From an uncultured Planctomycetales bacterium (lineage in GTDB: Bacteria; Omnitrophota; Gorgyraeia; Zapsychrales; JAHFFX01): 64,000 bases of DNA. The notes under the pieces were generated by a model, which saw nothing but the letters and a program-made list of their open reading frames with translations, was not told the origin of the DNA and did not search any database. Numbering within the stretch: position 1 is the stretch's first letter; the number at the start of each line of letters is the position of its first letter. Positions 39,828 through 59,079 of this stretch are shown in pieces. The DNA is taken from contig CAZTCI010000003.1 in assembly GCA_964612665.1 (NCBI GenBank), positions 207,734 to 271,733 of the forward strand. The letters are read 5' to 3'. The position numbers were made by a program, and so were the translations under genes.

Positions 39828-39875
39828 TTTGTTCCTCCTTGTTTTTATTGACGGGATCTCATCTATCTTCCATTT

Positions 39876-39893
39876 CGCAAACAAATGCGCCAT
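39876..39893 (-). promoter_or_regulatory. Possible sigma54-type promoter upstream of pilA (TGGCGC-N5-TTTGC on the minus strand)
   Basis: The GG/GC spacing is one nucleotide longer than the TGGCAC-N5-TTGCW consensus. Confidence 0.25.
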
Positions 39894-40127
39894 TTGTCGA
39901 GCATGCGAACGGATTTGAACAAAAATTTATTGACCTTTTTCTTAGATGGAAATTTGCATAATTTTTAGAAAAGAAAGACCAATAAATTCTAAAAAGCGAA
40001 GTATAACATCCTTAAGAACGTTTTGGCAAGGTGAGGCAGAAGACATGCGTCGTACACTTGGAGCAGTTCAAACGCCAATTTCAGACGATGTAATTAAATG
40101 TTAGAGAGAACAACAAATGGATAGACT

Positions 40128-41342: not shown

Positions 41343-43054
41343 CCAATGTTTTCCGTCAAGGTCACCCGCATTACTTCAGCATACGATGTTACCTTTTCAA
41401 TGACTTTTTTATAGCCGGCCATTCGCAGCGTTTGCATACTGCCAGAGGCGACTAAACTATTTGTAATCTCTTGATCGTCGGTTTTTTTAAGAATTAAATG
41501 CCGCAAATCTGGAGTAACTTTGAGAATTTCAAACAACCCAATCCGCCCAGCGTATCCTGTATGGAAACATTTTTCACAGCCAACGGGATCAGCTACTGTG
41601 ATTGGTCCCTTAACCGATAATTCAGCGGCTATCAAGGCTTCAACTTCCGCCGAAGCCTTGCTTTCTTTTTTACAATAAGGACAAAGCCGGCGGATAAGAC
41701 GCTGGGCAACAACGCCAATCAAGGTTGAACTTAAAAGAAATGGCTCAACGTTCATTTCTAAAAGTCTGGTCACGGCACCGGCCGCAGAATTCGTATGCAA
41801 CGTCGCTAAAACAAGATGTCCGGTCAAAGCGGCTCGCACCGACACCTCCGCCGTTTCAATATCACGGATCTCGCCTACCATAATAATATTCGGATCATGC
41901 CGAAGAATGTGGCGGATAGCGTTCGCAAAACTATATCCCGTATGGTTATTAATATTTGTTTGAGTGATGCCTTCTAACTGATATTCAACCGGGTCTTCGA
42001 CGGTAATGATATTGGTCGAAATTTTATTAAGTTCATTGAGGATGGAATAAAGCGTGGTCGTCTTGCCGGCGCCCGTCGGCCCCGTTACCAAAACCATGCC
42101 GTGAGGACGGGTAATAAATTTTTTGATTTGTTCAATTTCATGGGAACCAAGTCCAAGAGATTCCAAGGTATGTGAAATTGTTTTTTCATTTAAAATCCGT
42201 AAAGAGATGGTTTCACCGTTCATATCAAGCAGCGTCGACACACGGATATCAAAATTCTGACCGTTTTCCTGCCAGGAGATCCGGCCGTCCTGAGGCTTAC
42301 GGTTCTCAGCCACATCCATGCCCGCCATAATTTTTAGACGCGAAATCACTTTGCGGGATAAATCCTGAGGGATGGACACCTTTTCAAACAAGATGCCGTC
42401 AATCCTAAAACGCACGCGCAGATTTTCTTTTTGAGGTTCAAAATGAATATCCGAGGCGCCTTCCTTAATAGCTTGGCTTAAAACAGAACTGACTAATTTC
42501 AGGATGGGTGTTTCTTGCGGGTCGACACTTTGGGCATTGCGGATCGCTTGAAAAGTACGTCTTGACTCATGCGATCTTTTTAAACGTGCGGTGATGTCTT
42601 TTAATCCAGCCAAGACGGGTCTCACTTGATGGCCGCTTATATAACGGATTTCTTGCAGAGCCACAACATCAAGAGGATCGCTGGTGGCAACAATAAGATT
42701 ATTATCTTTAATTTCAATCGGAAGGACTTTGTGTTTATCAAGGATTTCAGAAGGAAATGAACTTAAGAGCTTTTCGTTGAGTGCGCAATTTTCCAGGTCG
42801 ATAATGGGCAGCCGATAAATGCCGGCAATGATTTTCAAAATCTCTTTTTCATCAACGGCTTCTTGATCGACGAGAATTTCGCCGATTCTTTTATCGGTCG
42901 CCTTTTGTTTTTCCAGGGCGGCGTTAAGCTGGGCAAGGGTAATTAAGCCCTGTTCAACAAGTAAATCGCCTATTTTTAAGTTGCGTTGGGTTTCCATAGT
43001 TTTAACCAGCAAACAATAGGATAAAAGTATAACAGGCAATTTTGGGTTTAACAA
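41339..43054 (-). CDS. pilB: Type IV pilus assembly ATPase PilB (GspE family)
   Basis: N-terminal GSPII_E_N domain, GPTGAGKTTT Walker A, an Asp box, and a tetracysteine motif (CPYCK...CEKC). Confidence 0.8.
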   Translation of the reverse strand: MLNPKLPVILLSYCLLVKTMETQRNLKIGDLLVEQGLITLAQLNAALEKQKATDKRIGEILVDQEAVDEKEILKIIAGIYRLPIIDLENCALNEKLLSSFPSEILDKHKVLPIEIKDNNLIVATSDPLDVVALQEIRYISGHQVRPVLAGLKDITARLKRSHESRRTFQAIRNAQSVDPQETPILKLVSSVLSQAIKEGASDIHFEPQKENLRVRFRIDGILFEKVSIPQDLSRKVISRLKIMAGMDVAENRKPQDGRISWQENGQNFDIRVSTLLDMNGETISLRILNEKTISHTLESLGLGSHEIEQIKKFITRPHGMVLVTGPTGAGKTTTLYSILNELNKISTNIITVEDPVEYQLEGITQTNINNHTGYSFANAIRHILRHDPNIIMVGEIRDIETAEVSVRAALTGHLVLATLHTNSAAGAVTRLLEMNVEPFLLSSTLIGVVAQRLIRRLCPYCKKESKASAEVEALIAAELSVKGPITVADPVGCEKCFHTGYAGRIGLFEILKVTPDLRHLILKKTDDQEITNSLVASGSMQTLRMAGYKKVIEKVTSYAEVMRVTLTENIG

Positions 43055-43223: not shown

Positions 43224-44366
<1,143 letters not shown>

Positions 44367-44611
44367 TTAAAAACTTTTCTGACAAAGCGGCGGCATTATA
44401 ACATAAAGGGTTTTAGGTGCAATTAAATTTCTTTTGCCTAAAAGCATTTCAGCATTTTCTCAATTGCAAAAATAGTTTTTCAAATAACAACAGCTAACTC
44501 AATATGCTCTTTAACAAGAAACCGTTTTCTCCCCCCCAAAGTCCCACCTTGTTTTCTTCACATTCGTCGGGTATCCTTTCTTTCGACTATAGTATTTTGT
44601 ACATAGAAAAA

Positions 44612-44680
44612 GGCAAACCGCTCGTAAGAGCGGGACCTAGGCACGACAGGAAGCAAAAAGAAATAAACCGTCCTAGCCCA
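44612..44680 (+). ncRNA. Candidate structured leader element upstream of the giant gene: GGCAAACC - GCUC GUAA GAGC (GNRA-capped hairpin) - GGGACCUAGGCAC ... GUCCUAGCCC
   Basis: Locally resembles the 5' half of a GEMM-I (c-di-GMP-I) riboswitch, GGCAAACC-hairpin(GNRA)-GGGAC, but lacks the conserved GCAAAGCC junction. Shares the 11-mer GGCAAACCGCT with the element at 26966-27066. Confidence 0.25.
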
Positions 44681-44871
44681 GCACAACCTACCTGAAAACG
44701 CTTCTAACATTTCAGACCCGCTGGGGCAAAGCTACAGGATCCTTAAACGGACAGCCAGCTACCTATGCAAAGACGCCCAAGACTCATCCGAAATTTTATC
44801 TATCCCAGAACCATCGGCCACACAAAAGCGATGGATTTTCGTGGTTATTCCAAAAAAGCAAAGGACAATTT

Positions 44872-47800
44872 ATGAAAAAGATTATATTCGTTTTGAGTTT
44901 ATTGATGATTCCATTCACTACTGCCCAGGCCGCCACGGTCGTGGTTGGCGAAAAGAATATTCTTTCAGCCGATGATAACGGTAATGGCAATTTACTTGTG
45001 ACACAGAAAGCCACCTTAAGTCAAACAGCCACTCTTCAAAGTTTGTCCTTTTATATCACGTCAGCAGCAGGAAAAATGCGTCTGGGGATCTATGATGCGA
45101 CTGGTCCGGGTGGTGGGCCTGGAAATAAAAAAGCAGAAACGAATGAAATCACACCTGTGGTGGGATGGAACACGGCGAATGTGACTTCGGCAGTGTCCTT
45201 GCCGTCGGGGACTTACTGGCTGGCCTATTTTCCCAGTGACAACCGCCTCGCCTTCAAAAAGAAATTGACAGGAAGTGCGAAATATTATTCATTGACCTAC
45301 GGTTCTCTACCCGCGAAATTTTCGACAACACCAAATTCAGAAGTCGTCCACTGGTCATTGTACGCCACCTTTTCAACGACTTCCTCGGCGGATAAAACCC
45401 CGCCGAACGTATCATTAACCGCTCCCGCCAATGGTGCAAGTGTGTCTGGATCATCCGTGACCGTCTCCGCGAACGCCTCGGATAACGTTGGGGTGGCCGG
45501 TGTTCAGTTTAAACTTGACGGAAATAACCTCGGGGCCGAAGATACATCTTCTCCCTACAGCATCACCATGGATTCAACGAAGGTTTCCAATGGCGTTCAC
45601 AGCTTAACGGCTGTGGCCCGTGACAGCGCTGAAAATACAAAAACGTCTTCAGCCGTTTCTATAACAGTCAACAATTCCACGCCTATCTCTGTGGTCATCA
45701 GTGGTCTGACCCTCAATAATAATGACACCTTAGGCGGCGCTATCATGACGCTTACTAACGGCGATTCTATTAATCTTTCAAATTTACCTACTCAAAATAT
45801 CAATATTGAAGCCAAAGTGACTTCAACCGGCACTGGTGTTTCTCATGTCGATTTCAAACTTGATTCTTTTACGCATACAGAAGTCTCCGCGCCTTACGCC
45901 TTGTGCGGCGACTGGGCGGCTTGTCCCGCGGGACTTTTTTCTGTTGGCTCTCATACTTTGACTGTCACGCCTTTTGATTCCGCCAACGCCGCCGGACAAA
46001 CAACCACAATCACTTTTCAAGTTATTAAAACAACGCCGCCTCCGTCAGACACAACACCGCCGACTGTTTCAATGACCGCTCCCGCTAATAATTCAAGCGT
46101 TTCCGGATCAAACGTAACTGTTTCCGCTAACGCTTCCGATGATGTTGGTGTCGTTGGAGTTCAATTTAAATTAGATGGAAACACTTTAAGTGCTGAAGAT
46201 ACTTCATCTCCCTACTTTATTATATGGGATGCAACTAAAACTTCTAACGGCGCCCACACTTTAACCGCGACCGCCCGTGATGCTGCCGGGAATTCTAAAA
46301 CATCTTCTGTCGTTAATGTCACTGTTAACAATCCAGACACAACCGCGCCTTCGGCCCCGACGGGTTTGATGGCCAAAGTTATTTCAACATCCGAAATCGA
46401 TTTGTCCTGGAACGCTTCAACGGATAACGTCGGCGTTACCGGTTACAACATTTACCGCAACAATCAATTAATCAAAACTCAAAACACGTTAGCGTTAGCC
46501 GATACCGGATTGACCGCCTCAACCACTTATGCCTACGGCGTCAGCGCCATTGACGCGGCCGGCAATGAATCCGCAAAAACGACGGTCAGTGCCAAGACTA
46601 ATGATAACCAAGCGCCCGTTGTCAGTCCGATTTCCCGCGACACCGCTGATGTTGATCCGGCAACGACCGGCTTACAATTTTACGAAGGGACAACTGTAAC
46701 CTATTCCAGCTCAGCCACCGATCCCGACAACGATCCATTGACTTGGAGCTGGATTTACACGCGTAACGGCGGGGCTGAAGTTGTTTTTAAAACCGGCACT
46801 GGCGCCGTTCAAAATGCCGTTTTCACTTATCCGACGGGAAGCGCTGGCACAACTTATCATTGGATTTTACGCGTCAGCGACGGCATTCATACCGTTGAAA
46901 GTACGCTTGATGTTTCGATCATCACACCTCCAGACACAACCGCGCCAACAGTTTCAATGACCACGCCGGCGAATAATGCAAGTGTCTCTGGAAGTTCGAT
47001 CACTGTTTCGGCGAACGCATCAGACAACGCCGGTGTCATCGGTGTTCAATTCAAAATGGATGGGAATACTTATGGCGCTGAAGATATGGCTTCTCCTTAT
47101 TCCATCGTCATGGACTCAACAAAAGTTTCCAACGGCGCTCACACGTTAACCGCAACAGCCCGCGATGCCGTCGGGAATTCCACGACGTCTTCTGTTGTCA
47201 ACATTACCGTCAGCAATGATTTAACCGCCCCGACTGTTTCTATTTCCGCGCCGGCCAACAACGCCAGCGTTTCCGGAAGTTCGGTCACGGTTTCAGCCAA
47301 TGCAGCCGATAACGTTGGCGTCGTTGGCGTTCAATTCAAACTCGACGGAAATAATCTGGGCGCTGAAGATACTGCCAGCCCTTATTCTGTTATTTTAGAT
47401 TCAACTAAAATTTCAAACGCGTCTCACACTTTAACTGCTGTCGCGCGTGATGCGGCGGGGAATTCGACTACATCGTCAACCATTACAATCACGGTTAACA
47501 ATCAACCACCAGACACAACTCCGCCGACCGTTTCAATGACGGCTCCGGCGAATAACGCAAGCGTCTCTGGCGCTTCTGTTACTGTATCTGCGAATACTTC
47601 TGACAACGTCGGCGTCGTCGGCGTTCAATTTATTTTGGATAGTTCTAATTTAGGTGCTGAAGACACAACGTCTCCTTACAGTGTTGTTTTAGATTCAACC
47701 AAAATCAGCAACGGCGCGCACACGCTTAAAGCTGTCGCGCGCGATGCGGCCGGAAATCTTGGAACATCTTCCATCGTTAATATCATGGTCAACAATCAAG

Positions 47801-50800
47801 TGCCAGACACAACACCACCAACGGTTTCAATGACCGCTCCGGTGAATAACGCGACCGTGTCGGGAAGTTCTGTCATCGTTTCCGCCAACGCTTCCGATAC
47901 CGTTGGTGTTGTCGGCGTGCAGTTTAAACTCGATGGAAATAATTTAGGAAGTGAAGACACTTCCTCTCCTTATTCTATTAATTTTGATTCAACAACCGCG
48001 GCGAATGGTTCTCATACCTTAACCGCAGTCGCCCGTGATGCCGCCGGCAACACAACAACTTCGTCGGCCGTTTCGATTACTGTTTCTAATACCACAACAC
48101 CTCCGCCGACCAGCCCGGCATATCCGCTGAAAGCCAGTGCGAACAAACGTTATCTGGTTGACCAAAACAACCAGCCGGTCTTTCTCGTTGGTGATTCACC
48201 GCACGCGATGTTTGTTAATTTAAGTACGAGCCAGGCCGCGACCTACATGACCAATCGTGCTTCTTACGGCGTCAATGCTTTATGGGTCGAAATTCTTTGC
48301 GGCAGTTACATTCCTAATTGCCGTTCTGACATGAGCACCTTTGACGGGATTGTTCCGTTCACAACGCCCGGCGACATTTCAACGCCGAACCCGGCTTATT
48401 TCAGCCGGATCGACGCCATGGTCGCAACCGCGGCGCAAAACGGCATTATTCTTTTTATTGATACCTGGGAAACCGGCGGTGAGATGGGTATTCTGCAGGC
48501 CAACGGCAACACCAAGGCCTTCAACTACGGTGTCTTCCTCGGGAACCGTTATAAAAATAATCCGAATGTTATTTGGATTACCGGTAACGACTTTACAACA
48601 TCCGGTAATTCTACTGACGACACGCTCATCAAAAATATCATGGCCGGTATCGCCTCAGTTGATCCCAATCATCTGCAAACGGTTCAACTGGGATATCCGG
48701 TCAGCGGTTCGCATGAAGACAGTTTACTGCTTCCCTATATTACGCTCGGGGAAGTTTACAGTTATCCGCCGCAGTACGCGAAGATTTATACCGAATACAA
48801 CGCCAGCCCGACGCTGCCTGTTTATATGGAAGAAGCCAATTACGAAGGCGAAAACAATACCGGCAACGACCCGAGCACGCCGAAAGTTTTGCGCCAGCAG
48901 GAATACTGGACGATGCTCGCCGGCGGATTGGCCGGACAGATGTACGGCAGTGCAACGACCGCGTATTTTAATTCAGGATGGCAAAATAATTTGGATACAA
49001 CCGGCGTTCGTCAGTTAAAGATCATGAAAAATTTCTTCATGGCTTACGGCTGGCAGAATTTGGTGCCGGACCAAAATCATACGTTTGTCACAGCGGGATA
49101 CGGAACGTTCGCAAACAGTGGTGCCGTTCACACCAATGACTACGCGACCGCCGCGGTTTCACCCGACGGAACGCTTGGCATGGTCTACGTTCCATCGTCT
49201 CGAACAATGACTGTGGCTATGACAAAGATGGCTTCCACCACCGTAACCGCCCGCTGGTTTGATCCGTCAAACGGTAATTACACGCCGGTCTCTGGATCGC
49301 CGTTTGCCAATACCGGAACAAAACAATTTACACCGCCGGGCAATAACAGCGATGGTGACAGCGATTGGGTCCTAGTTCTTCAATCGTCAACAACGCCGGA
49401 TAATCAAGCGCCATCGGTTCCAGGGAATTTAACCGCTAACGCCGTATCATCAAACCAGATCAATCTTTCTTGGAAATCCTCGACGGATAATGTCGGTGTT
49501 ACCAATTACGTTATTTTTAGAAACGGAATTCAGATCGCAACGCCAACTTCGACAACTTATCAAGACACAGGATTAACTGCGCAAACGACTTATATCTATA
49601 CCGTCGCTGCGCAGGATCTTATGGGAAATACATCTGCCCAATCCGCTTCCGCCTCCGCCACCACACCGACGGCGCCGCCTTTATCGGCTGGACTTTTGGC
49701 TGCTTATGCTTTTGATGAAACCTCCGGATCAACGGCTGCGGATTCCTCTGGAAATAATTTACCTGGAACACTCAACGGTTCTGCGACGTGGACCGCGGGA
49801 AAATATTCCGGAGCAGTCAACTTAAACGGTTCAACGCAGTACGTGGATTTAGGAAATCCTGCATCGCTTCAATTAACCGGCAGCATGACCGTGACGGCCT
49901 GGATCAATTCGGCGGCGTTTCCGGCTGATGATGCAGCGGTTGTTTCCAAACGCAATACAACCGGTGGGTATCAATTGGACACGACAATCGACGTCGGGCC
50001 GCGCGCGATTGGATTTAAACTTACGGATTCCAGCGGCGTTAATATGATGCGCTACGGCAAAACCACGATGCAGACGAACACCTGGTATCACGTCGCCGGC
50101 GTTTACAATGCCGCGACCCAAACCATGGATGTTTATTTAAACGGAATCCTCGATAACGGCACGCTGTCCGGAACGATTTCATCGACGCAGCAAGATTTTG
50201 CGACGAATGTCATGATCGGTAAACGGTCGGGTAATTCTGGATATGAATTCAATGGTCGGATCGACAACGTACGGATCTACAACCGCGCATTGACTGCGGC
50301 GGAAATTCAAACAGATATGAATACCGCCATCATCGCCGGGACACTTCCGCCGCCCCCGCCCTCATCTGATGCCACACCACCTAGTGTTCCTTCGGGATTA
50401 ACGGCGACAGCGATGTCTGCAAGTCAAGTCAATTTATCCTGGAGTACCTCGACGGACAATCTCGGTGTGACGGGGTATAAAGTTTATCGCTGTCAGGGCG
50501 CGGGTTGTTCAACATTTGCTCAAGTCGGAACATCAGCGACGGCCAGTTATCAAGACACCGGATTATCAGCATCGACCAATTATTCTTACAAAGTTTCGGC
50601 CTATGACGCCGCTGGAAATTTATCAGGGTATTCGAATCAAGCCACTGGGACAACACCCGGCAGCGGCACTGATGGTGTTTGCAATCGTGGCGATATTATC
50701 ATGTGTGAAAATTGGGAATGGAGTACCAATCCATCTTACGCAGCTTCAGCTTCAGATTGGAACGCTCATGGATGGACGCTAGGTGAAACACTAAGCACAT

Positions 50801-53800
50801 ACGCCAATAGCAACGTATACTGTAACGGTATCGGATACGCTGGAAATTGTGCGGCCCAACTTTTTCTCGACGTTGATGGAGCAGGCACACAGTATCCAGA
50901 TTATCCTATCCCCGATCAACAGGGCACAATTTATCTTCGGTTCTATGTGAAGTATTCGCCCGGATATAAATTTAATTGGAACACATCCGTGCAACCTCCA
51001 GAAGGAGAACAACAAAAGGTTGCTTACCTGCGCGCACTCTCCGGTGGGAATATGGCATGGCGTATTGAAATTGATAATTTTGGACGTAATGGCGGAGCGT
51101 CGGGAGAATTTGGCGTTGATCTAAACGTCCACAATACATTTCTAAAGTACAACCAAGGACATGATGTCAATGTCGTCGGAGGCCAGTGGTATGCCATTGA
51201 ATTGATGGCGCAATTAAATACACCCGGGCAAACCAACGGGGCCATCAAGATGTGGATTGATGGCGTCCTTGTCATCTCAAACTCCGGGCTTGATATGCGT
51301 CAGGGCGCCGGACCAGCTTCAACACCGATCAATGATGTGTGGTTTACCTCTTACTATGGAGGACCAACAGATCCTCATCCAGCCCAATATATTTACTATG
51401 ACAATTTTGTTGTCAGTTCAAACTATATTGGTCCGATAGGAACGCCACCGCCTTCAGATACGACAGCGCCGACGATTTCTTTAACGGCACCTGCGAATAA
51501 TGCAACAGTCTCCGGATCGTCCGTCAGTGTATCGGCCAATGCCTCCGACAACGTCGGTGTGGCCGGAGTTCAATTCAAATTGGACGGAAATAATCTGGGC
51601 AGTGAAGATATATCATCGCCGTATTCGGTCGTATGGAATTCGACGACGGCGACGAACGGTTCGCACACACTGACGGCCGTTGCGCGCGATGCCGCCGGAA
51701 ATACGACGACCTCGACAAGTGCCATGGTGACTGTGAACAATGTACCGGCCGATACAACCGCGCCAACGGTATCGATGACCGCGCCGATCAATGGCGTAAC
51801 GGTGTCCGGTTCTTCCGTCCCTGTTTCTGCGAATGCGTCGGACAACGTCAGTGTGGCCGGTGTTCAATTTGTTTTGGACGGAAATAATTTAGGAAATGAA
51901 GATACGTCTTCTCCTTATTCCGTTGTCTGGAATTCCACGACGGCAACGAACGGCAGCCATACGTTAACGGCGATCGCGCGCGACGCGGCCGGCAATATCG
52001 CGACGGCCAGCTCAGTCACCGTGACGGTCAACAACACCGTTTCCGACACAACGCCGCCAAGCGTTCCAACAGGATTAAACGCGGCAGCTCTTTCTTCTTC
52101 TCAAATCAATTTATCCTGGAGTTCTTCGACGGACAATGTTGGCGTGACCGGCTACAAGATTTTCCGTTGCCAGGGTTCTGGATGTTCCACCTTTACTCAA
52201 ATCGGAACATCAACAACGGCAGCTTATCAAGACAACGGATTGTCGGCGTCGACCAATTATTCCTATAAAGTCTCGGCGTATGATACCGCTGGAAATAATT
52301 CCGCCCAATCGGCAAGCGTAAACGCAACAACGTCATCCGCGCCGACGGGAAGTCTTTCTTCTCTCTATCCCGGCGACGTGGGCATCGAAAATGATCCGGC
52401 GGTTTTATTCACCGAAAAATTCAACGGCGGAACGCTCTCCCAGATTGCTTCGCGCTACGATGACGTATCGAATCTCTCCAGCATGACGCTTTCAAATGAT
52501 GTCCCTGCTGGCAGCGGAAGTTCAACGTCACTTTTGATCACCGCCACCGGCGGTCAATCTTCAGGCGGTCATCTTTACAAAAACTTAGCGAATATCAACA
52601 AAACTGAAAACGACACGATGTACTTACGTTATTACGTGAAATATAAATCCGGATTTACCTTCCACCACAACTCCGTTTGGTTTGGCGGCTACAATCCTCC
52701 TTTAAATTATCCTTACCCCAGAGCAGGTCTTAAACCGGCGGGCAACGATCTTTTTACTGTCGCGACCGAACCCGTCGAAGCATCAGGACGTTTGGATAAC
52801 TACATTTATTGGATGGGCATGCATTCAGATCCAAACGGCGATTATTGGGGAAATGATTTACTGCAAGATGCCAATCTCAAAGAAACACCGGATCAATGGA
52901 TCTGCGTTGAGACCATGGTGAAACTGAATAACCCCGTCACCGCCGCCAATGGAGAGCTGGCGTTTTGGATCAACGGCCAGAAGAAAAATGATTTAGGCTT
53001 AGGCTTCCCTAATGGCCATTGGGTCTGGGATAGTTTTTATCCGACCGCGACGGACTCAACGACGTTTGGCGGGTTTCAATGGAGAAGCGATGCGAATTTG
53101 AATTTAAATTATATATGGATTCAAAATTACGCGGATACCACGCCCGTCGGCTCAACAAGTCAAATGGAAGTGGCCAATCTGGTCGCGGCCAAACAATACA
53201 TTGGATGCCTTACATCCACCCCTCCGCCCTCTGATACAACACCACCGAGTGTTCCATCAGGATTAAACGCCACGGCTATTTCTTCTTCTCAAATCAATCT
53301 AAGCTGGGGCGCATCAACGGATAATGTCGGTGTGACGGGTTATAAAGTTTATCGTTGTCAGGGGTCTAGTTGTTCAACATTCACGCAAGTGGGAACATCA
53401 GCAACCACAAATTATCAGGATAGCGGTTTGAACGCATCCACAAATTACTCGTATAAAATTTCCGCCTATGATGCGGCGGGAAATAATTCGACACAATCAA
53501 ATAGCACCAATGCAACAACGCAAAGCAGTACGACTGCCGTCAATCCCGACTGCTCCTTGCCCGGCGTACTTTACTGCCAGGACTGGACAAACGGATGGAC
53601 CGGCGTGGATGGTCCTGCGGATGGAAGCTGTAATTATATTGACACCTCTCAGGCCCACAGCGCCACTAAATCGAATGTAATGAACTGGGGTCCTAATCAA
53701 AATTCCTGTTCATGGTATTATTTGCCGACATTTACACCGCAGAAAGAAGTTTACGTGCGATGGTATCAATATATGAGTCCAGGATGGAACTGCAATGATC

Positions 53801-56800
53801 CGGCGCATGAATCCAAAGATTTCATCATCAATAGTGCGCGCGCGCCTTCAACCGACGGCGGGACCGGCGTTCAAATTCAATTTGGTGACGGAAACTTTGG
53901 TCAGTGCGGACTTGGCTTTAGACCGATCCGCATGAAAACTCAATGGGACATGATGTTTTATCAGAATCAAGGCCACGACGTTGATTTCGCAGCCAACCCA
54001 ACCAAGTGGTATTGCATTGAGACGCACGTCAAACTTAATGATCTCAATCAATCAAACGCTATCATCGAAGCCTGGGTCGATAACACATTGGTTATGAAGC
54101 ATACTGGAATGGACCTTTCTCCCGGAGACGATTCTTTTATGCAGTTGTGGGGAACGGGCAGTAAAATTAATCAAAGCAATTCCTCAATCGCCCGCTGGAC
54201 CGACGATATCGTCATTAGCACACAGCGGATCGGTTGTCAAAATGCGAGTCTTCCTCCGCCTTCCTCTGACGCTGTGCCGCCGACAGTTTCGTTAACCGCG
54301 CCAACCAATAACGCCAGCCTCTCGGGGACAAGTGTAACGGTCTCCGCAAACGCGTCCGATAATATTGGGGTCGCCGGTGTGCAATTCAAACTCGATGGAA
54401 ATAATTTGGGCAGTGAGGTTACTTCTTCTCCTTACTCTATTAATTGGAATTCAACGACCGCGACCAACGGTTCTCATATTTTAACCGCCGTGGCCCACGA
54501 TGCGGCGGGGAATACAACGACCTCATCGCCAGTCACCGTGACTGTTTCTAACCAAAGCAGTTCAAATAGTCTGATTATCGGTGAACAAAATGTTCTCACC
54601 TCTGCTGATAACGGCAACGGGAATTTATTGGTGGCGCAATCAGCGACGCTGCCTCAAACCGCGATGATCAACAGCTTGAGTTTTTATGTCACCAATGCCG
54701 CCGGAAAATTACGGCTGGGAATTTATGATGCAACCGGTCCAAACGGCGGTCCAGGCGCGAAGAAAGCCGAGACCAACGAAATGACACCCGTTGTTGGATG
54801 GAATACGGCCAATGTAACGGCGGTCTCATTACCAGCCGGAACGTATTGGCTCGCTTATCTGGCCAGCGATGACAATCTCGCGTTTGTGAAAACCGAAGAT
54901 AGTTCTTCGAGTGGAGCGTATTATTCGTATACCTATGGTACTCTCCCTTCTACATTCTCAACATCACCAAGTACAACACCCAGTCACTGGTCATTTGATG
55001 CGACTTTAAGTACGACAAACGCTCCGCCACCGCCTTCATCCGATACAACGGCGCCAAGCGTTCCAACGGGGTTAACAGCAAGTGCTGTTTCTTCGTCTCA
55101 AATTAATTTGTCGTGGAGCGCATCAACGGACAATATCGGCGTGACGGGTTATAAAGTTTATCGTTGTCAGGGATCAGGCTGTTCTGCCTTCGCTCAAGTT
55201 GGAACATCCCCGACCACAAGTTATCAAGATACAGGATTAACCGCGTCAACGAGTTATTCCTATAAAGTCTCGGCGTATGATGCGGCCGGCAACAATTCGG
55301 CGACCTCATCGTCTGTTTCATCAACGACGAGCGCGGCAAATTCGACACAAACGATCGCCACCAACGACTGGAACAGCATTAGCAGTCCTTGGCATCTTGA
55401 TCATGGAACGGCGACCATCGATTCATCCACCAACACGCCGAACCCGACAGGTGCGCTGCATTTTGTTTATCCGGTTGGCTGGCATGATGGAAATGACCCA
55501 GGAGGCGTTAATCTGGAGAATTTTGGAAACTACAATGAATTATATGTCGGATATTATTTCAAATATTCATCGAACTTTCAGTGGCATCCCGTCGCCAATA
55601 AGCACGCCTATGTTTGGCTCGGCGGCGATCCGAGCAACGGGAATTTCTTCGTTGCCGTTGGCGGTAATCAACACATGTGGTTCACCAATCAGATTGGCTG
55701 GGGACCAGGATCCATCGATTACAAACCCAACACGGCCAACAATCCAACGATTCAAGCCGGCACATGGTACTGGATGGAATTTCACGTCAAACAAAACACG
55801 CCCGGTCAATCCGATGGGCTCTTTGAGATGTGGATTAATGGTCAATTAGTCATGCAATACAACAATATCCCGTATCGTTCCTCGTCTCAGTCCAATATGG
55901 GATTTGGAAGTTTTAGTTATACGCCGGTGTGGGGCGGGGTTGTGGGCGCCACCAATAATGTTCAGAGTGATTTGTGGGTTGACCATACCGTGATTTCAAC
56001 CGGGCCTATTGGCGTTCCGGGTGCGACATTTCAATCCGCAGATGTCTATTACAACACATTCGAGTCTGCTGATATGCGCCCTAGTATTACTTTCAACGGA
56101 ACCTATTGGCAGGTGACCGGCGCAAGCGGTCCTTATTGGGGAGCTACCCCGTTGGGCGCTGGAGAGGAACCGAATCAGCCGGCGGGAGTTTACACGGCGT
56201 CAGCAAATCTTGGGAACGATGGGGCGCATTCGCCTGTATATGTGAACGATAGCAGCCTCTGCCGCACACAATCGTGTCTTCGTTATGATAAATCTCCGTC
56301 GGGTGGTGGGGGTGGTGCACTCTACTATCTGACACTTGGGGACACCCTTCCCAATCAAACCTCACAGCATTTGTTCTATCGTGCTTATCAGAAATTTCCC
56401 ATTGGGTATCAGTTTGTTTTTGGAAAACTTAATTACATGCGAGATTACAATGGAACGACGGTGATTGTGCTTAAGGGATGCTCGCCGGTATGCACAAGCA
56501 CGGATCTACGGATCGAGGTGGGAACGCCGAGCACAAGTTACTATTGCAATCAAGGAATCTCCTGTACCATCACGGGGGACAATCAATGGCACTCGCTCGA
56601 AGTGGAACTGGACCCGAATGGCGGAGGAACCAATGCCGCCACGATTCGCATGTGGCGGGATAGCAATCTCGTTTTGGAGTATTGTCCGTCGTGTTCTCAA
56701 CATGCCACTATCGCTACACCTCTGAATCCAGGCGGAATTGCGTTTGGAGAGTATGACAACGCGGCAGCGGAAGGAGGCGGAAGTCCGACGCAAAATCAAT

Positions 56801-56850
56801 CATTCTGGCTTGATGATTTGGCGGTCAGCAGACAACGGATTGGACCTTAA
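44872..56850 (+). CDS. Giant (3,992 aa) secreted multidomain surface protein. It has a signal peptide and an about 150-aa N-terminal domain that is duplicated near residue 3240. It has about 10 Ig-like (Big) repeats, 6 fibronectin-III domains and a PKD-like domain. It has a DUF4038/GH140-like TIM-barrel glycosidase domain with a Collagen_bind_2-like tail, a LamG/concanavalin-like domain, and five divergent beta-jelly-roll modules of about 270 aa
   Basis: A single uninterrupted ORF, with the RBS AAAGGA 7 nt upstream. The repeat and domain signatures are read from the translation, e.g. ...DNVGVVGVQFKLDGNNLGAEDTSSPYS..., ...LSWSASTDNVGVTGYKVYRCQGSGCS..., and LKASANKRYLVDQNNQPVFLVGDSPHAMF. Confidence 0.8.
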   Translation: MKKIIFVLSLLMIPFTTAQAATVVVGEKNILSADDNGNGNLLVTQKATLSQTATLQSLSFYITSAAGKMRLGIYDATGPGGGPGNKKAETNEITPVVGWNTANVTSAVSLPSGTYWLAYFPSDNRLAFKKKLTGSAKYYSLTYGSLPAKFSTTPNSEVVHWSLYATFSTTSSADKTPPNVSLTAPANGASVSGSSVTVSANASDNVGVAGVQFKLDGNNLGAEDTSSPYSITMDSTKVSNGVHSLTAVARDSAENTKTSSAVSITVNNSTPISVVISGLTLNNNDTLGGAIMTLTNGDSINLSNLPTQNINIEAKVTSTGTGVSHVDFKLDSFTHTEVSAPYALCGDWAACPAGLFSVGSHTLTVTPFDSANAAGQTTTITFQVIKTTPPPSDTTPPTVSMTAPANNSSVSGSNVTVSANASDDVGVVGVQFKLDGNTLSAEDTSSPYFIIWDATKTSNGAHTLTATARDAAGNSKTSSVVNVTVNNPDTTAPSAPTGLMAKVISTSEIDLSWNASTDNVGVTGYNIYRNNQLIKTQNTLALADTGLTASTTYAYGVSAIDAAGNESAKTTVSAKTNDNQAPVVSPISRDTADVDPATTGLQFYEGTTVTYSSSATDPDNDPLTWSWIYTRNGGAEVVFKTGTGAVQNAVFTYPTGSAGTTYHWILRVSDGIHTVESTLDVSIITPPDTTAPTVSMTTPANNASVSGSSITVSANASDNAGVIGVQFKMDGNTYGAEDMASPYSIVMDSTKVSNGAHTLTATARDAVGNSTTSSVVNITVSNDLTAPTVSISAPANNASVSGSSVTVSANAADNVGVVGVQFKLDGNNLGAEDTASPYSVILDSTKISNASHTLTAVARDAAGNSTTSSTITITVNNQPPDTTPPTVSMTAPANNASVSGASVTVSANTSDNVGVVGVQFILDSSNLGAEDTTSPYSVVLDSTKISNGAHTLKAVARDAAGNLGTSSIVNIMVNNQVPDTTPPTVSMTAPVNNATVSGSSVIVSANASDTVGVVGVQFKLDGNNLGSEDTSSPYSINFDSTTAANGSHTLTAVARDAAGNTTTSSAVSITVSNTTTPPPTSPAYPLKASANKRYLVDQNNQPVFLVGDSPHAMFVNLSTSQAATYMTNRASYGVNALWVEILCGSYIPNCRSDMSTFDGIVPFTTPGDISTPNPAYFSRIDAMVATAAQNGIILFIDTWETGGEMGILQANGNTKAFNYGVFLGNRYKNNPNVIWITGNDFTTSGNSTDDTLIKNIMAGIASVDPNHLQTVQLGYPVSGSHEDSLLLPYITLGEVYSYPPQYAKIYTEYNASPTLPVYMEEANYEGENNTGNDPSTPKVLRQQEYWTMLAGGLAGQMYGSATTAYFNSGWQNNLDTTGVRQLKIMKNFFMAYGWQNLVPDQNHTFVTAGYGTFANSGAVHTNDYATAAVSPDGTLGMVYVPSSRTMTVAMTKMASTTVTARWFDPSNGNYTPVSGSPFANTGTKQFTPPGNNSDGDSDWVLVLQSSTTPDNQAPSVPGNLTANAVSSNQINLSWKSSTDNVGVTNYVIFRNGIQIATPTSTTYQDTGLTAQTTYIYTVAAQDLMGNTSAQSASASATTPTAPPLSAGLLAAYAFDETSGSTAADSSGNNLPGTLNGSATWTAGKYSGAVNLNGSTQYVDLGNPASLQLTGSMTVTAWINSAAFPADDAAVVSKRNTTGGYQLDTTIDVGPRAIGFKLTDSSGVNMMRYGKTTMQTNTWYHVAGVYNAATQTMDVYLNGILDNGTLSGTISSTQQDFATNVMIGKRSGNSGYEFNGRIDNVRIYNRALTAAEIQTDMNTAIIAGTLPPPPPSSDATPPSVPSGLTATAMSASQVNLSWSTSTDNLGVTGYKVYRCQGAGCSTFAQVGTSATASYQDTGLSASTNYSYKVSAYDAAGNLSGYSNQATGTTPGSGTDGVCNRGDIIMCENWEWSTNPSYAASASDWNAHGWTLGETLSTYANSNVYCNGIGYAGNCAAQLFLDVDGAGTQYPDYPIPDQQGTIYLRFYVKYSPGYKFNWNTSVQPPEGEQQKVAYLRALSGGNMAWRIEIDNFGRNGGASGEFGVDLNVHNTFLKYNQGHDVNVVGGQWYAIELMAQLNTPGQTNGAIKMWIDGVLVISNSGLDMRQGAGPASTPINDVWFTSYYGGPTDPHPAQYIYYDNFVVSSNYIGPIGTPPPSDTTAPTISLTAPANNATVSGSSVSVSANASDNVGVAGVQFKLDGNNLGSEDISSPYSVVWNSTTATNGSHTLTAVARDAAGNTTTSTSAMVTVNNVPADTTAPTVSMTAPINGVTVSGSSVPVSANASDNVSVAGVQFVLDGNNLGNEDTSSPYSVVWNSTTATNGSHTLTAIARDAAGNIATASSVTVTVNNTVSDTTPPSVPTGLNAAALSSSQINLSWSSSTDNVGVTGYKIFRCQGSGCSTFTQIGTSTTAAYQDNGLSASTNYSYKVSAYDTAGNNSAQSASVNATTSSAPTGSLSSLYPGDVGIENDPAVLFTEKFNGGTLSQIASRYDDVSNLSSMTLSNDVPAGSGSSTSLLITATGGQSSGGHLYKNLANINKTENDTMYLRYYVKYKSGFTFHHNSVWFGGYNPPLNYPYPRAGLKPAGNDLFTVATEPVEASGRLDNYIYWMGMHSDPNGDYWGNDLLQDANLKETPDQWICVETMVKLNNPVTAANGELAFWINGQKKNDLGLGFPNGHWVWDSFYPTATDSTTFGGFQWRSDANLNLNYIWIQNYADTTPVGSTSQMEVANLVAAKQYIGCLTSTPPPSDTTPPSVPSGLNATAISSSQINLSWGASTDNVGVTGYKVYRCQGSSCSTFTQVGTSATTNYQDSGLNASTNYSYKISAYDAAGNNSTQSNSTNATTQSSTTAVNPDCSLPGVLYCQDWTNGWTGVDGPADGSCNYIDTSQAHSATKSNVMNWGPNQNSCSWYYLPTFTPQKEVYVRWYQYMSPGWNCNDPAHESKDFIINSARAPSTDGGTGVQIQFGDGNFGQCGLGFRPIRMKTQWDMMFYQNQGHDVDFAANPTKWYCIETHVKLNDLNQSNAIIEAWVDNTLVMKHTGMDLSPGDDSFMQLWGTGSKINQSNSSIARWTDDIVISTQRIGCQNASLPPPSSDAVPPTVSLTAPTNNASLSGTSVTVSANASDNIGVAGVQFKLDGNNLGSEVTSSPYSINWNSTTATNGSHILTAVAHDAAGNTTTSSPVTVTVSNQSSSNSLIIGEQNVLTSADNGNGNLLVAQSATLPQTAMINSLSFYVTNAAGKLRLGIYDATGPNGGPGAKKAETNEMTPVVGWNTANVTAVSLPAGTYWLAYLASDDNLAFVKTEDSSSSGAYYSYTYGTLPSTFSTSPSTTPSHWSFDATLSTTNAPPPPSSDTTAPSVPTGLTASAVSSSQINLSWSASTDNIGVTGYKVYRCQGSGCSAFAQVGTSPTTSYQDTGLTASTSYSYKVSAYDAAGNNSATSSSVSSTTSAANSTQTIATNDWNSISSPWHLDHGTATIDSSTNTPNPTGALHFVYPVGWHDGNDPGGVNLENFGNYNELYVGYYFKYSSNFQWHPVANKHAYVWLGGDPSNGNFFVAVGGNQHMWFTNQIGWGPGSIDYKPNTANNPTIQAGTWYWMEFHVKQNTPGQSDGLFEMWINGQLVMQYNNIPYRSSSQSNMGFGSFSYTPVWGGVVGATNNVQSDLWVDHTVISTGPIGVPGATFQSADVYYNTFESADMRPSITFNGTYWQVTGASGPYWGATPLGAGEEPNQPAGVYTASANLGNDGAHSPVYVNDSSLCRTQSCLRYDKSPSGGGGGALYYLTLGDTLPNQTSQHLFYRAYQKFPIGYQFVFGKLNYMRDYNGTTVIVLKGCSPVCTSTDLRIEVGTPSTSYYCNQGISCTITGDNQWHSLEVELDPNGGGTNAATIRMWRDSNLVLEYCPSCSQHATIATPLNPGGIAFGEYDNAAAEGGGSPTQNQSFWLDDLAVSRQRIGP

Positions 56851-56854
56851 TCTT

Positions 56855-56879
56855 CCCAACCTCCGGGGTTGGGGAGGTT
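56855..56879 (+). terminator. G/C hairpin after the giant gene with two alternative pairings (CCCAACC/GGTTGGG or AACCTCC/GGAGGTT). The second pairing includes the GGAGG Shine-Dalgarno of the TPR gene
   Basis: Read directly. Related in sequence to the hairpin at 58037-58063. Confidence 0.4.
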
Positions 56880-56887
56880 TGATAAAG

Positions 56888-58036
56888 ATGTTTTATCCAA
56901 AATTTTTCATAAAAGGCCTATCAATCCTTATCGGGTTGATGGGCCTTTTTGTTTCGGTAAGTTTCGCGGAGACTATTCTTTTAAAAAACGGCGTTACAAT
57001 TCATGGAGATATTTTAGAAAGGAACGAAAAAACTGTAAGAGTCAAAACCAGCGTCGGGCTTGATATCATCTATGATGTTGGTCAGATTGAAAGCATCAAC
57101 GCGGTTTCGGTTGAACCGTATAAAGTTACTGCACCAAAAGAAAACTCCGCCCAAACAATTCCAGCGCAGCCTGCCGGGGATTTTTCCAGTGTGGTGCAGA
57201 CAAAGAAAAACTTTGTCATGGCTCCGGCTGATATAGAAGCCGCTGAAGCAGCGGAAATAAAAGCGCGGCAATATTTAGATGCACAGCAATTTGATTTAGC
57301 GATCGGCGAATTCACCAAAATAATTCAAAAGAACATCCAGAATCCAATAGCCTTTTATAACCGCGGCAATGCTTACATGATGAAAAAGGATTTCCCGTCG
57401 GCAATTGCGGATTATTCGCAGGCATTAATTCTTGATCCTCATGACGCCCCCTCCTATGGCAACCGGGCGGTTGCTTATCAAAATAACGGGCAAATTGAGA
57501 AAGCCGTTGAGGATTTCAACAAATCATTAGAACTTGATCCGTCGCTTGAAAAATCCTATTTCGGTTTGGGCTATATTGCCGATCAAAAAAAAGACGTTGA
57601 ATCTGCTCTTAGCAATTTTACAAAAGCGTTAAATTTAGATCCAAACGATGCCAAAGCGCGTGAATATCAGGCAGATCTGTATATAGAGAAGAATGATTTG
57701 GACGCGGCGCTGGCGGATTTCAATTATTTAATCGACCACAACCAGGCTTCAGCCAAAACTTATTACGGCCGTGGTTATGTTTCTTATAAAAAAGATGCGA
57801 CGCAACAAGCGATCGTGGATTTAACGAAGGCCATTGATTTGGAGCCGAAAGGTGAATACTATTACGCCCGGGCGGGAGCTTACTATAATCAGCAGGACTT
57901 GAACCGCAGCAAGGAAGATTTCAAAAAAGCCAGCGAATTGGGTGTGGCCGTCGACAAGAAATTCTTAGGAAATTTAGAAAAAGCCAACGAAATGGTGGCC
58001 AAGGCTTTGAAAAAAAATTTAAAATATCCGCAATAA
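56888..58036 (+). CDS. Secreted tetratricopeptide-repeat (TPR) protein
   Basis: Signal peptide MFYPKFFIKGLSILIGLMGLFVSVSFA, then at least 6 TPR units (AFYNRGNAYMMKKDFPSAIADYSQALILDP...). The start is at the Met 10 nt after GGAGG; the ORF track begins 50 codons earlier, inside the hairpin. Confidence 0.7.
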   Translation: MFYPKFFIKGLSILIGLMGLFVSVSFAETILLKNGVTIHGDILERNEKTVRVKTSVGLDIIYDVGQIESINAVSVEPYKVTAPKENSAQTIPAQPAGDFSSVVQTKKNFVMAPADIEAAEAAEIKARQYLDAQQFDLAIGEFTKIIQKNIQNPIAFYNRGNAYMMKKDFPSAIADYSQALILDPHDAPSYGNRAVAYQNNGQIEKAVEDFNKSLELDPSLEKSYFGLGYIADQKKDVESALSNFTKALNLDPNDAKAREYQADLYIEKNDLDAALADFNYLIDHNQASAKTYYGRGYVSYKKDATQQAIVDLTKAIDLEPKGEYYYARAGAYYNQQDLNRSKEDFKKASELGVAVDKKFLGNLEKANEMVAKALKKNLKYPQ

Positions 58037-58063
58037 CCTCCCCAACCCCGGGGGTTGGGGAGG
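58037..58063. terminator. Perfect palindrome CCTCCCCAACCCC g GGGGTTGGGGAGG (13-bp stem) exactly between the convergent stops of the TPR gene and fmt
   Basis: Read directly. No U-tract on either side. Confidence 0.5.
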
Positions 58064-59014
58064 TCAGCCGCTGGGATTGTCAAGGCGTTCGCCGGACTTA
58101 AGTTTGTGCCCGGCGAGAAAATCTTTCACGGTCATTACTTTACCGGCTTCAGGCTGGACTTTTTTAATCAACAAACCTTTATCGGCGCAAGCAACTGTAA
58201 ATCCCGCTTTATCAACTGAACTAATTTCTCCGGGCTCGAAATTTTTTAATGATACATCCGCATCCAAAACTTCTGCCTCCAAAATCTTAAGCATCTTTCC
58301 TTTATAACGCGTATACGCCGACGGCCACGGCAAAAGACCGCGGATAAGATTGTGAATGTCCTCCGCTTTTTTATTCCAGACAATCATTCCCAATTCTTTA
58401 GTCAGTTTAGGCGCCAAACTCACCTGCGCTGAATCCTGTACCGTTAATGTGTAAGCATTTTTTTCCAACGAATCGATTGTCTTTAAAAGAAGTCTGGCGC
58501 CCAAATCCGCCATTCGGGCGCGTAAACTTACGGCTGTATCCGACGGATCAATTTTAATTTTCGTCTGAGCAAATATGTCGCCGGCATCCATGTGCGTGTT
58601 CATCTTAATGATGCTGACTCCTGTTTCTCGGTCGCCATTGATAATCGCCCAATTAATCGGCGCCGCGCCGCGGTATTTGGGCAGCAACGATCCATGAACA
58701 TTCATACAGCATAAATAAGGAATTGATAAAACTTCGATTGGCAGGATGCGCCCATAAGCAATCACGACGAACAGATCGCTTTGAAATTCTTTAAGGGATT
58801 CGATAACGTGAACTTCTTTTAAATTAGTCGGCTGGAAAACAGGAATGTCATGGCGGCCGGCGAATTCTTTGATCGGCGGCATAGTAAGCGCCATGCCGCG
58901 GCCTTTTGGTTTGTCCGGCTGAGTAACGCAGGCGACCACGTCGTGCTCGGAGGCTTTCAAGGCTTCCAAACTGACTTTCGCAAAATCGTCGCTGCCGAAG
59001 AAAATTATTTTCAT
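58064..59014 (-). CDS. fmt: Methionyl-tRNA formyltransferase
   Basis: KIIFFGSDDFA...VVACVTQPDKPKGRG; the HxSLLPxxRG formyltransferase motif (HGSLLPKYRGAAP); 316 aa. Confidence 0.85.
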   Translation of the reverse strand: MKIIFFGSDDFAKVSLEALKASEHDVVACVTQPDKPKGRGMALTMPPIKEFAGRHDIPVFQPTNLKEVHVIESLKEFQSDLFVVIAYGRILPIEVLSIPYLCCMNVHGSLLPKYRGAAPINWAIINGDRETGVSIIKMNTHMDAGDIFAQTKIKIDPSDTAVSLRARMADLGARLLLKTIDSLEKNAYTLTVQDSAQVSLAPKLTKELGMIVWNKKAEDIHNLIRGLLPWPSAYTRYKGKMLKILEAEVLDADVSLKNFEPGEISSVDKAGFTVACADKGLLIKKVQPEAGKVMTVKDFLAGHKLKSGERLDNPSG

Positions 59015-59039
59015 GATAGGTTTTAGATTTTAGGTCTTG

Positions 59040-59077
59040 GGTGTTAGGTGTCCACCTAAACCTGAAACCTAACACCT
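59040..59077. repeat. AT-rich hairpin GGTGTTAGGT - 18 nt - ACCTAACACC between priA and fmt. Member of the GTGTTAGGTG palindrome family
   Basis: 10-bp perfect stem. The same core occurs at 16293-16303 and 16313-16323. Confidence 0.5.
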
Positions 59078-59079
59078 CG

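Follow-up and report, generated by a model that had tools for sequence, protein, structure and literature searches.

The window analysed here, a 64-kb stretch of DNA (contig CAZTCI010000003.1), carries on its forward strand a giant gene at positions 44872–56850 (ATG start, stop codon included) that encodes a protein of 3,992 amino acids (aa). A Shine-Dalgarno (SD) sequence, AAGGA, lies seven bases 5′ of the ATG, and the 523-bp intergenic region in front of the gene, which is common to a divergent GAPDH gene, contains a candidate aptamer for cyclic diguanylate (c-di-GMP). Beyond the GAPDH gene lies a cluster of the type IV pilus (T4P)/type II secretion system (T2SS) class. An earlier note, made from the sequence alone, had described the product as a secreted modular protein mixing Ig and FN3 spacers with a GH140-like barrel, a LamG domain and five jelly-roll modules, and the module map obtained here supports this description. 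Overall, on balance we favour, by somewhat better than even chances, a Sec-exported, unanchored, acidic multi-modular extracellular protein that binds and cuts complex polysaccharide, the latter probably containing uronic acids.

The single open reading frame (ORF) of 11,979 nt was borne out: the frame is uninterrupted over its whole length, each module is intact, and the modules follow one another in a sensible order. An artefact of assembly, with repeats collapsed or chimeric, had been raised by the earlier note as a ground for refutation, and one observation speaks for it, namely that an assembly made from short reads of the same population (Logan SRR12313477, contig L034) stops inside the giant gene, exactly at an exact repeat of 32 nt. 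This repeat, with copies at 53332–53363 and 55141–55172 (+) within two FN3 units, is the longest exact DNA repeat of the gene. However, the repeat units are just 62–73% identical in DNA, and the independent assembly is 100% identical to the window over positions 55141–59896, which covers the last 1.7 kb of the gene. Collapse of repeats in the assembly was ruled out by these observations, and an artefact of any kind is very unlikely, to the point of being hardly credible; the ORF is real. Because of the same low DNA identity and short exact repeats, the internal repeats pose no assembly hazard and are not an evident hotspot of recombination, and no basis was seen for the special hotspot that had been suggested. 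Neighbouring proteins of the window are present in the Logan runs SRR12313477–79, but the full-length protein was absent from public assemblies by exact look-up, since the short-read assembly breaks at the 32-nt repeat; this break is a concrete case of the fragmentation of such genes in k-mer-based short-read assemblies. A contig scan with aa 1–390 yielded no orthologue, the matches being unrelated proteins that share Big_7 or the N-terminal domain, here called domain A.

Module organization of the giant protein

The module map combines Pfam matches along the full-length protein, BLAST comparisons of its segments with the protein itself, and a hidden Markov model (HMM) of the jelly-roll family. 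The earlier count of more than 25 domains behind a signal peptide held, as 27 modules were found behind a Sec signal peptide: nine Big_7 units, one divergent Ig unit, one Ig-like unit, six FN3 units, a GH140 barrel, a Collagen_bind_2 domain, a Laminin_G_3 domain, five jelly-rolls, and two copies of domain A. The signal peptide, of the SPase I type (aa 1–20, 44872–44931 (+)), reads MKKIIFVLSLLMIPFTTAQA with cleavage before ATV, as judged by eye, and is the sole stretch of the protein with a membrane-type mean hydropathy. As had been noted, the protein ends without a sorting motif: a simple pattern search revealed no LPXTG or PEP-CTERM motif, and no sorting-domain model of NCBIfam scored above its curated cutoff, the MXYO-CTERM-anchored family model NF045522 reaching 17.1 versus 150 bits, with the match placed mid-protein (aa 1833–1927) and not at the C-terminus. 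The earlier picture of a cell-surface fibre was not upheld, as no anchor of any kind was found; release into the medium is therefore equally possible as a surface location.

From the N-terminus, domain A copy 1 (aa 21–175, 44932–45396 (+)) is followed by Big_7 unit 1, the divergent Ig unit and Big_7 unit 2 (aa 176–268, 269–390 and 395–487; together 45397–46332 (+)), by FN3 unit 1 (aa 488–578) and the Ig-like unit (aa 579–685; together 46333–46926 (+)), and by Big_7 units 3–6 (aa 690–1073, 46939–48090 (+)). The GH140 unit comes next, and after it FN3 unit 2 (aa 1509–1590), the lectin-like Laminin_G_3 domain (aa 1652–1813) and FN3 unit 3 (aa 1833–1919), which together span 49396–50628 (+). The Laminin_G_3 match is solid, and thus the LamG domain proposed earlier was recovered. 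The remainder of the chain carries the five jelly-roll modules, between which lie Big_7 units 7–8 (aa 2198–2388) and FN3 unit 4 (aa 2392–2480; together 51463–52311 (+)), FN3 unit 5 (aa 2788–2876, 53233–53499 (+), by BLAST), and Big_7 unit 9 (aa 3136–3214), domain A copy 2 (aa 3233–3384) and FN3 unit 6 (aa 3391–3474; together 54277–55293 (+)).

About ten near-identical Ig-like units had been proposed. Their number stands, as nine Big_7 units plus one divergent Ig unit, but their near-identity does not: in ungapped comparison over fixed 93-aa windows the mean protein identity of the Big_7 units is 59% and the maximum 82%, the minimum of 6% being an artefact of one unit that lies a residue out of register. 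By BLAST, the units are 70–78% identical to unit 1. The six FN3 units were confirmed, four of them with an insert RCQGxxCS (consensus RCQG[AS][GS]CS) that contributes a pair of cysteines, as predicted. The supposed PKD-like domain was not: the unit at aa 579–685 matched PKD_4 at E 0.15 and Sde0182_C at 28.9 bits, with likeness also to Big_9, and is read as a generic Ig-like sandwich.

Domain A was likewise found to be duplicated, as the earlier note had seen, with the second copy at 54568–55023 (+); the two copies are 67% identical in protein, short of the almost identical recurrence that had been claimed. Neither copy matched DUF4082 (PF13313) at E values up to 1, whereas 14 of 43 close homologues matched it weakly (best E 3e-4). 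No match was found among PDB sequences, and the solved structures closest to it are decoration domains of phage capsids and tails. Domain A is described as a DUF4082-like beta-sandwich resembling carbohydrate-binding modules and PHR-type sandwiches. Its relatives remain 50–70% identical in phyla that lie far apart, among them candidate-phyla-radiation bacteria, Chloroflexota and Gammaproteobacteria, and it often occurs as a stand-alone protein of 140–150 aa.

Candidate catalytic modules

The GH140 unit (48136–49383 (+)) consists of a GH140/apiosidase-like TIM barrel and a Collagen_bind_2 beta-sandwich. PF13204 matched aa 1089–1394 with 157.3 bits against a cutoff of 26.5 (E 9e-46, profile positions 1–318 of 320), and PF12904 matched aa 1420–1504, just after the barrel, with 63.4 bits against a cutoff of 22 (E 2e-17). 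The whole unit was aligned end to end with the apiosidase 8t9w (E 2.6e-27, residues 5–423), and further PDB matches were 4qfu (E 2.9e-20) and 3kzs/5msy (E 4.2e-17). The barrel with its tail, first noticed without database searches, is thereby substantiated. At the family level the sequence assignment is unambiguous. In the alignment with 8t9w, the two motifs that are best conserved (GND/GGD and EE.NYE/GEPIYE) keep their acidic residues. BT1012 of Bacteroides thetaiotaomicron (5msy) is a beta-D-apiosidase that cuts the Apif-beta1,2-GalA linkage in rhamnogalacturonan-II (RG-II), and the giant protein shares with BT1012 and 8t9w the same two-domain unit of DUF4038/Apiosidase barrel and Collagen_bind_2 sandwich. 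However, BT1012 is a periplasmic enzyme that stands alone and belongs to a utilization locus for pectin (RG-II), whereas the present unit is built as one module into a giant secreted protein, and its bacterium has no evident link to plant pectin. For these reasons, the substrate of the unit probably differs from that of BT1012.

The five jelly-roll modules lie at aa 1927–2190 (module 1, 50650–51441), 2495–2780 (module 2, 52354–53211), 2882–3125 (module 3, 53515–54246), 3477–3719 (module 4, 55300–56028) and about 3720–3992 (module 5, 56029–56847), all on the plus strand; module 5 forms the C-terminus of the protein. Five divergent modules of roughly 270 aa had been predicted, and they were confirmed by the family HMM, by Pfam PL14 for modules 1 and 2, and by an AlphaFold (AF2) model of module 1. 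The modules are about 20–25% identical to each other. With the PL14 model PF21294 (cutoff 27 bits), the cutoff is exceeded by modules 1 and 2 (38.6 and 29.3 bits) but not by modules 3 and 4 (19.0 and 26.6 bits). Module 5 has no Pfam match, being recognized by the family HMM (114 bits, the module itself contributing to the profile) and by a BLAST match to module 1. PF14099 remained under its cutoff of 29.9 bits in every module.

A search with the module profile over 1.84 billion representatives retrieved 9,767 proteins at E ≤ 1e-3 and 3,310 at E ≤ 1e-10. Close relatives of module 1 are stand-alone proteins of about 290 aa, each equipped with a signal peptide, and in some long proteins seven to nine stretches match the profile, with cadherin-like, FIVAR, BACON or dockerin units between them. 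With gene ends taken as called, five of five stand-alone relatives (P0001–P0005) end about 10 residues past the final IGP, with a tail P..P..L[RK]Vx that resembles the first strand of the FN3 unit following each module.

Several lines of comparison relate the modules to polysaccharide lyases. Pfam matches on 45 family members were weak (Polysacc_lyase_14 in 38 of 45 and Polysacc_lyase PF14099 in 25 of 45). The five-module profile matched no PDB sequence, whereas a 45-sequence profile matched 2zzj (E 7e-12), 5gmt (E 8e-8) and 6kcw (E 2e-7), and also Cip1 (E 1e-7) and X122 (E 2.6e-4). For the model of module 1 (predicted local distance difference test score 81, predicted template modelling score 0.84), the top structural matches were all true lyases, followed by X122, GH131, Cip1 and heparinase I, with lectins and GH16 lower. 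Thus, by predicted model and by profile, the beta-jelly-roll fold of module 1 is closest to the PL14, PL20 and PL36 lyases.

The near-invariant polar residue of the family is a single lysine (aa 2049 in module 1, motif QQKVAYLR), which is retained in modules 1, 3, 4 and 5 and is replaced in module 2 by asparagine, as in PL20, according to the HMM alignment. In sequence alignment, as opposed to structural superposition, it falls on chain residue K91 of Aly36B (PL36) and on K111 of AkAly30 (PL14). Aly36B K91 corresponds to K143, the offset being fixed by the position of the alanine-substituted tyrosine in the K143A/Y185A crystal chain; in AkAly30, the catalytic lysine is numbered K99 and the tyrosines Y140 and Y142. 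The Aly36B paper (ref. 30 in PMC8618178) gives lysine in its title as both catalytic base and catalytic acid. The catalytic tyrosine (AkAly30 Y140/Y142, Aly36B Y185) has no conserved counterpart on the aligned strand, which reads GEFGVDLNVH in module 1, either in the five modules or in the 45-sequence alignment.

The family differs from PL14 (AkAly30 5gmt, vAL-1 3a0n), PL20 (TrGL 2zzj) and PL36 (Aly36B 6kcv) in that the PL14/PL36 catalytic tyrosines are not conserved, in having its own Cys-bracketed segment at the N-terminus and its own conserved core, W...E...N / W.DG, and in the presence of five divergent copies in one chain; identity to these enzymes is 13–16%, and the clade is one without known activity. 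The modules also resemble Cip1 (3zyp) and the Teredinibacter turnerae X122 domain (8q28), which are jelly-rolls within large secreted multi-domain proteins of polysaccharide degraders, with a function that has been suspected and not demonstrated. Neither lyase activity nor binding was demonstrable for Cip1 and X122 domains (PMC10916295). The conserved patch is Arg118/His100/His213 in X122 and the lysine in the present family, and X122 proteins carry redox domains, unlike the giant protein. Considering the sequence and fold evidence together, catalysis by the jelly-roll modules appears somewhat more likely than not, and the four modules with the lysine are inferred to cleave uronate-containing chains by beta-elimination. 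That the modules are instead glycoside hydrolases or transglycosylases of the GH16/GH131 type is quite improbable: GH131 and GH16 do appear in the list of structural matches, but the lyase families rank higher by sequence and by fold, no such Pfam or PDB sequence match was obtained at any threshold used, and the columns conserved in the family do not include the catalytic ExDxxE motif of GH16.

A candidate c-di-GMP-I riboswitch in the leader

The unusually long leader of about 520 bp pointed out in the earlier note measures 523 bp and was found to hold a candidate c-di-GMP-I (GEMM-I) aptamer at 44603–44767, on the sense strand and 105 nt before the start codon. The candidate rests on a sub-gathering match to RF03167 and on 15 metagenomic relatives. 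It is laid out as a P1 helix (CAUAG/CUAUG), a core AAAGGCAAACC, a 6-bp GNRA hairpin, GGGAC, an insertion, GCAAAGC, a 3′ hairpin with ACAGCC, and a final ACC. By alignment to the Rfam consensus and to the 15 relatives, the equivalents of the ligand-contacting residues G20, A47 and C92, in the numbering of the Vibrio Vc2 aptamer, are canonical. The c-di-GMP-I-GGC (A47G) variant was ruled out, since the A47 position holds A and not G, as was a tandem aptamer, each half-motif being present once in the window. A site upstream of a gene for a large extracellular protein is a classic type of GEMM-I target.

In a relaxed Rfam scan of the leader, the single sense-strand match was to RF03167, with 22.9 bits against a gathering score of 59 (E 0.002–0.0065, calculated for the leader only), and nothing in the whole window reached gathering (RF03167 59, RF01051 35). 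The leader RNA resembles the c-di-GMP-I clan (CL00126) in core, P1, GNRA hairpin, G20/A47/C92 equivalents and 3′ hairpin, and is set apart from it by an 89-nt insertion (44637–44725) in one arm, which folds as two flush hairpins between GGGAC and GCAAAGC. Such RNAs score 23–36 bits and lie mostly below gathering.

Metagenomes were scanned for the two aptamer halves spaced 65–95 nt apart, which gave at least 122 matches. Among the 122 listed, 68 are ordinary aptamers with a second GCAAAGC downstream, and 15 non-canonical ones, not selected on the insertion, have a proper GNRA hairpin (L038, L039, L049, L051, L058, L068, L072, L074, L099, L118, L126, L140, L145, L150 and L154). Rfam scores 12 of these 15 at 27–36 bits, and one alone passes a gathering score. 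When folded by itself, the insertion forms exactly two hairpins that leave no base unpaired at either end or between them, in 15 of the 15 listed relatives and in the window; for the window insertion, this flush fold was reproduced by 1 of 2000 dinucleotide shuffles and by 1 of 1622 natural 89-nt segments of the window. Because GGCAAAC and GCAAAGC pair through their GC dinucleotides in the Rfam consensus structure, the two inserted hairpins are predicted to turn the internal loop of the arm into a four-way junction, with the ligand-binding junction left intact.

Pairing was counted on an alignment of trimmed, end-anchored sequences; 97.6% of its cells are paired, and in 14 of 18 pairs both sides vary. 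Hairpin 1, whose columns are unbiased, shows changes on both sides in four of six pairs with 100% pairing; the inserted hairpins show them in 10 of 10 pairs, but their arms were taken from each sequence's own minimum free energy (MFE) fold, so that these counts lean towards structure. A covariance model (R1) built without the window sequence gave a single hit in the window, at 44609–44731 (44.9 bits, E ~4e-10), in a test that is partly circular, as the sequences used for training were collected with a search pattern taken from the window. The genes 3′ of the 15 listed relatives are mixed and include several large secreted proteins. Four relatives (L099 4730–4927, L140 452–650, L145 2475–2675 and L058 8981–9169 (−)) form a sub-group in which both inserted hairpins contain conserved internal loops (UUYGC...GCUUC for the first hairpin, GAAGC...GCGAAG for the second), which suggests a specific tertiary motif; the window copy is without these loops. 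The metagenomic contig L058 also carries, at 12305–12490 (−), an unrelated cobalamin riboswitch (90.8 bits).

No clear terminator or SD-sequestering hairpin, and so no clear expression platform, was found in the leader, and a promoter and terminator scan gave nothing useful on the plus strand. The RNAfold MFE structure shows a weak hairpin and a short run of U residues at 44811–44840 (+), downstream of the aptamer and ahead of the ATG; it was not flagged by the terminator scan and may serve as the expression platform. These features leave room for a degenerate or coincidental GEMM-like element that no longer senses c-di-GMP, the 523 bp being a divergent promoter region shared with GAPDH. This is doubtful, though it has arguments of its own: the score lies far below both gathering scores, the region as a whole folds with a z-score of just −1.9, the expression platform is unclear, and the inserted hairpins lack the loops conserved in part of the class. 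Against it stand the occurrence of P1, the three ligand-contacting equivalents, the GNRA hairpin and the AGCC...ACC 3′ element, all in order and on the sense strand, together with the flush hairpin pair, which is shared with every listed relative and rare among shuffled and natural segments. A functional, c-di-GMP-responsive leader element is regarded as likely, at around two chances in three. No description of an insertion-bearing GEMM-I variant was found in the literature searched, which is weak evidence, as one may still be published; if unpublished, this architecture would be a new variant of the riboswitch class and the most original by-product of the analysis. If true, the leader RNA is a regulatory link from c-di-GMP to an extracellular enzyme array, and it points to a c-di-GMP-I subclass mostly missed at current Rfam thresholds.

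Genomic neighbourhood and proposed function

The divergent GAPDH gene (43224–44348 (−)) separates the giant gene from the T4P/T2SS-class cluster at 34795–43054 (−), which comprises a secretin, a PilO/GspM-like protein, a PilN-containing protein, a GspG/ComGC-like short pilin, PilC/GspF and a PilB/GspE ATPase. The secretin, ATPase, PilC/GspF and pilin genes lie 1.8–10 kb upstream of the giant gene, on the other strand. All components gave similar scores with the equivalog models for T4P and for T2SS, in each case below the cutoff, and no PilT or PilD/prepilin peptidase was found among the ten ORFs scanned. The cluster is thus not assignable by sequence to either system, and the earlier statement that the giant gene sits right next to a complete T4aP cluster is not supported. 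The PilB/GspE ATPase (41339–43054 (−)) contains an N-terminal c-di-GMP-binding MshEN domain (NF053729, 60 bits against 38; Pfam E 2e-20), so that the secretion or pilus motor and the leader of the giant gene may read the same second messenger; such shared reading would link the gene and the cluster more concretely than adjacency does. On the 3′ side, the giant gene is followed by a gene for a TPR protein, and not directly by a PilZ gene; the TPR protein is 382 aa in the independent assembly, and hence there is no overlap with the giant gene.

In the mechanism we propose, the signal peptide would carry the giant protein over the inner membrane, and passage through the outer membrane might proceed via the nearby T2SS-like machine. 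Outside the cell, the two DUF4082-like sandwiches and the LamG domain would bind glycan, the GH140-like barrel would hydrolyse a glycosidic side-chain linkage, and the four jelly-rolls with the PL14/PL36-type lysine would cut uronate chains by beta-elimination, and the divergence of the five jelly-rolls would give them different specificities. The Big_7 and FN3 units would act as spacers, giving an extended enzyme array. Transcription or translation would be gated by c-di-GMP through the GEMM-I-type aptamer with its expanded arm, and the pilus/secretion ATPase encoded nearby would sense this signal as well, through its MshEN domain. The target could be a polysaccharide of a host, prey or biofilm envelope, in line with the episymbiont or predator model proposed for the phylum. 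We favour an acidic heteropolysaccharide of the host envelope or biofilm matrix, because PL14, PL20 and PL36 enzymes act on polyuronates and GH140 acts on a galacturonan side chain.

A number of the observations given above weigh against this mechanism. For the enzymatic part, these are the scores of modules 3–5 under the Pfam gathering threshold, the asparagine of module 2, the missing conserved tyrosine, and the presence of Cip1 and X122, which have no shown activity, among the closest profile relatives. For the regulatory part, they are the Rfam score far below gathering, the partial circularity of the R1 test and the lack of a clear expression platform. For the genomic setting, they are the GAPDH gene between the giant gene and the secretion/pilus cluster, the divergent transcription of the two, and the TPR gene in the place of a downstream PilZ gene.

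Some of the same observations would suit a protein that is mainly an adhesin, in which the jelly-rolls are non-catalytic, lectin-like domains on a long stalk, GH140 is the one enzymatic module, if any, and the chain tethers a small Omnitrophota cell to a host cell or polysaccharide matrix. Besides the Cip1 and X122 relatives, which have no detectable activity (PMC10916295), and the unconserved tyrosine positions, this reading draws on the three further binding-type modules, on an Ig/FN3 stalk typical of adhesins, and on the tandem-repeat scaffolds of Omnitrophota, which carry up to 36 ConA-like lectin/glucanase domains. We hold it to be possible but on the unlikely side, as the best matches by structure and by profile are without exception true lyases, with lectins ranked lower, and the near-invariant polar residue is the lysine that is catalytic in both PL14 and PL36. 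In addition, tethering needs a cell anchor and none was found, although a bridging role remains compatible. At the other extreme from an adhesin, the jelly-rolls could be an uncharacterized lyase family with a PL36-type single-lysine mechanism, five divergent copies of which, deployed by an Omnitrophota episymbiont, joined to GH140 on one secreted chain and gated by a structurally new four-way-junction GEMM-I variant in step with the MshEN ATPase, breach the host envelope or capsule; in this full form the proposal is improbable.

The source itself is placed by the PriA protein of the window, all named relatives of which are Candidatus Omnitrophota; since the closest non-self sequence is just 53% identical, the sequence belongs to a deep Omnitrophota branch without a sequenced close relative. 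In two reports on this phylum (West-Roberts et al. 2023, 10.1101/2023.11.21.568195; Nielsen & Lui 2026, 10.64898/2026.06.07.730766), long proteins are described that combine attachment and carbohydrate-degrading domains, with gspD/E/F-like and pilin genes alongside, genes for c-di-GMP-binding PilZ proteins downstream, and repeats that are diverged and not recent; adhesion to prey or host and digestion of the cell wall were proposed as their role. Judged by those reports, a giant of this kind is therefore not largely undescribed, as the earlier note had it. The present protein is like these giants in phylum, in its mix of attachment and carbohydrate-degradation domains, in the gspD/E/F-like and pilin genes a few kb away, in a link to c-di-GMP signalling, and in repeats that are diverged in DNA and not recent tandem expansions. 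It differs in size (3,992 aa versus thresholds of 30,000 aa in West-Roberts et al. 2023 and 10,000 aa in Nielsen & Lui 2026) and in several further respects: their many transmembrane regions are absent, the signal peptide being the only hydrophobic stretch; their SecA-DEAD, C39 and dockerin domains have no Pfam match here, where a plain Sec signal peptide is present; and the c-di-GMP link consists of the candidate leader riboswitch and the MshEN domain of the ATPase instead of a downstream PilZ gene. A combination of GH140 with PL14-like domains is not reported for Omnitrophota long proteins in the accessible parts of these two sources. Thus, each component is of a known family or fold and the genomic theme has already been described, whereas the combination of GH140, five PL14-like modules and DUF4082-like heads was not found described.

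Omnitrophota are ultra-small bacteria, uncultured so far and with a presumed life on other cells, and attention has so far gone to their proteins of more than 10,000 aa. A mid-sized giant protein such as this one is small enough for module-by-module dissection. Its jelly-roll family (about 9,800 cluster representatives) sits between PL14, PL20 and PL36 on the one hand and the enigmatic Cip1/X122 on the other, so the function of a module could inform the whole family. In the neighbouring cluster, just past the secretin, a 691-aa protein (32585–34660 (−)) with a prepilin-type N-terminal methylation motif and CarboxypepD_reg-like domains was also observed, which from its sequence may be a very large minor pilin or a tip protein.

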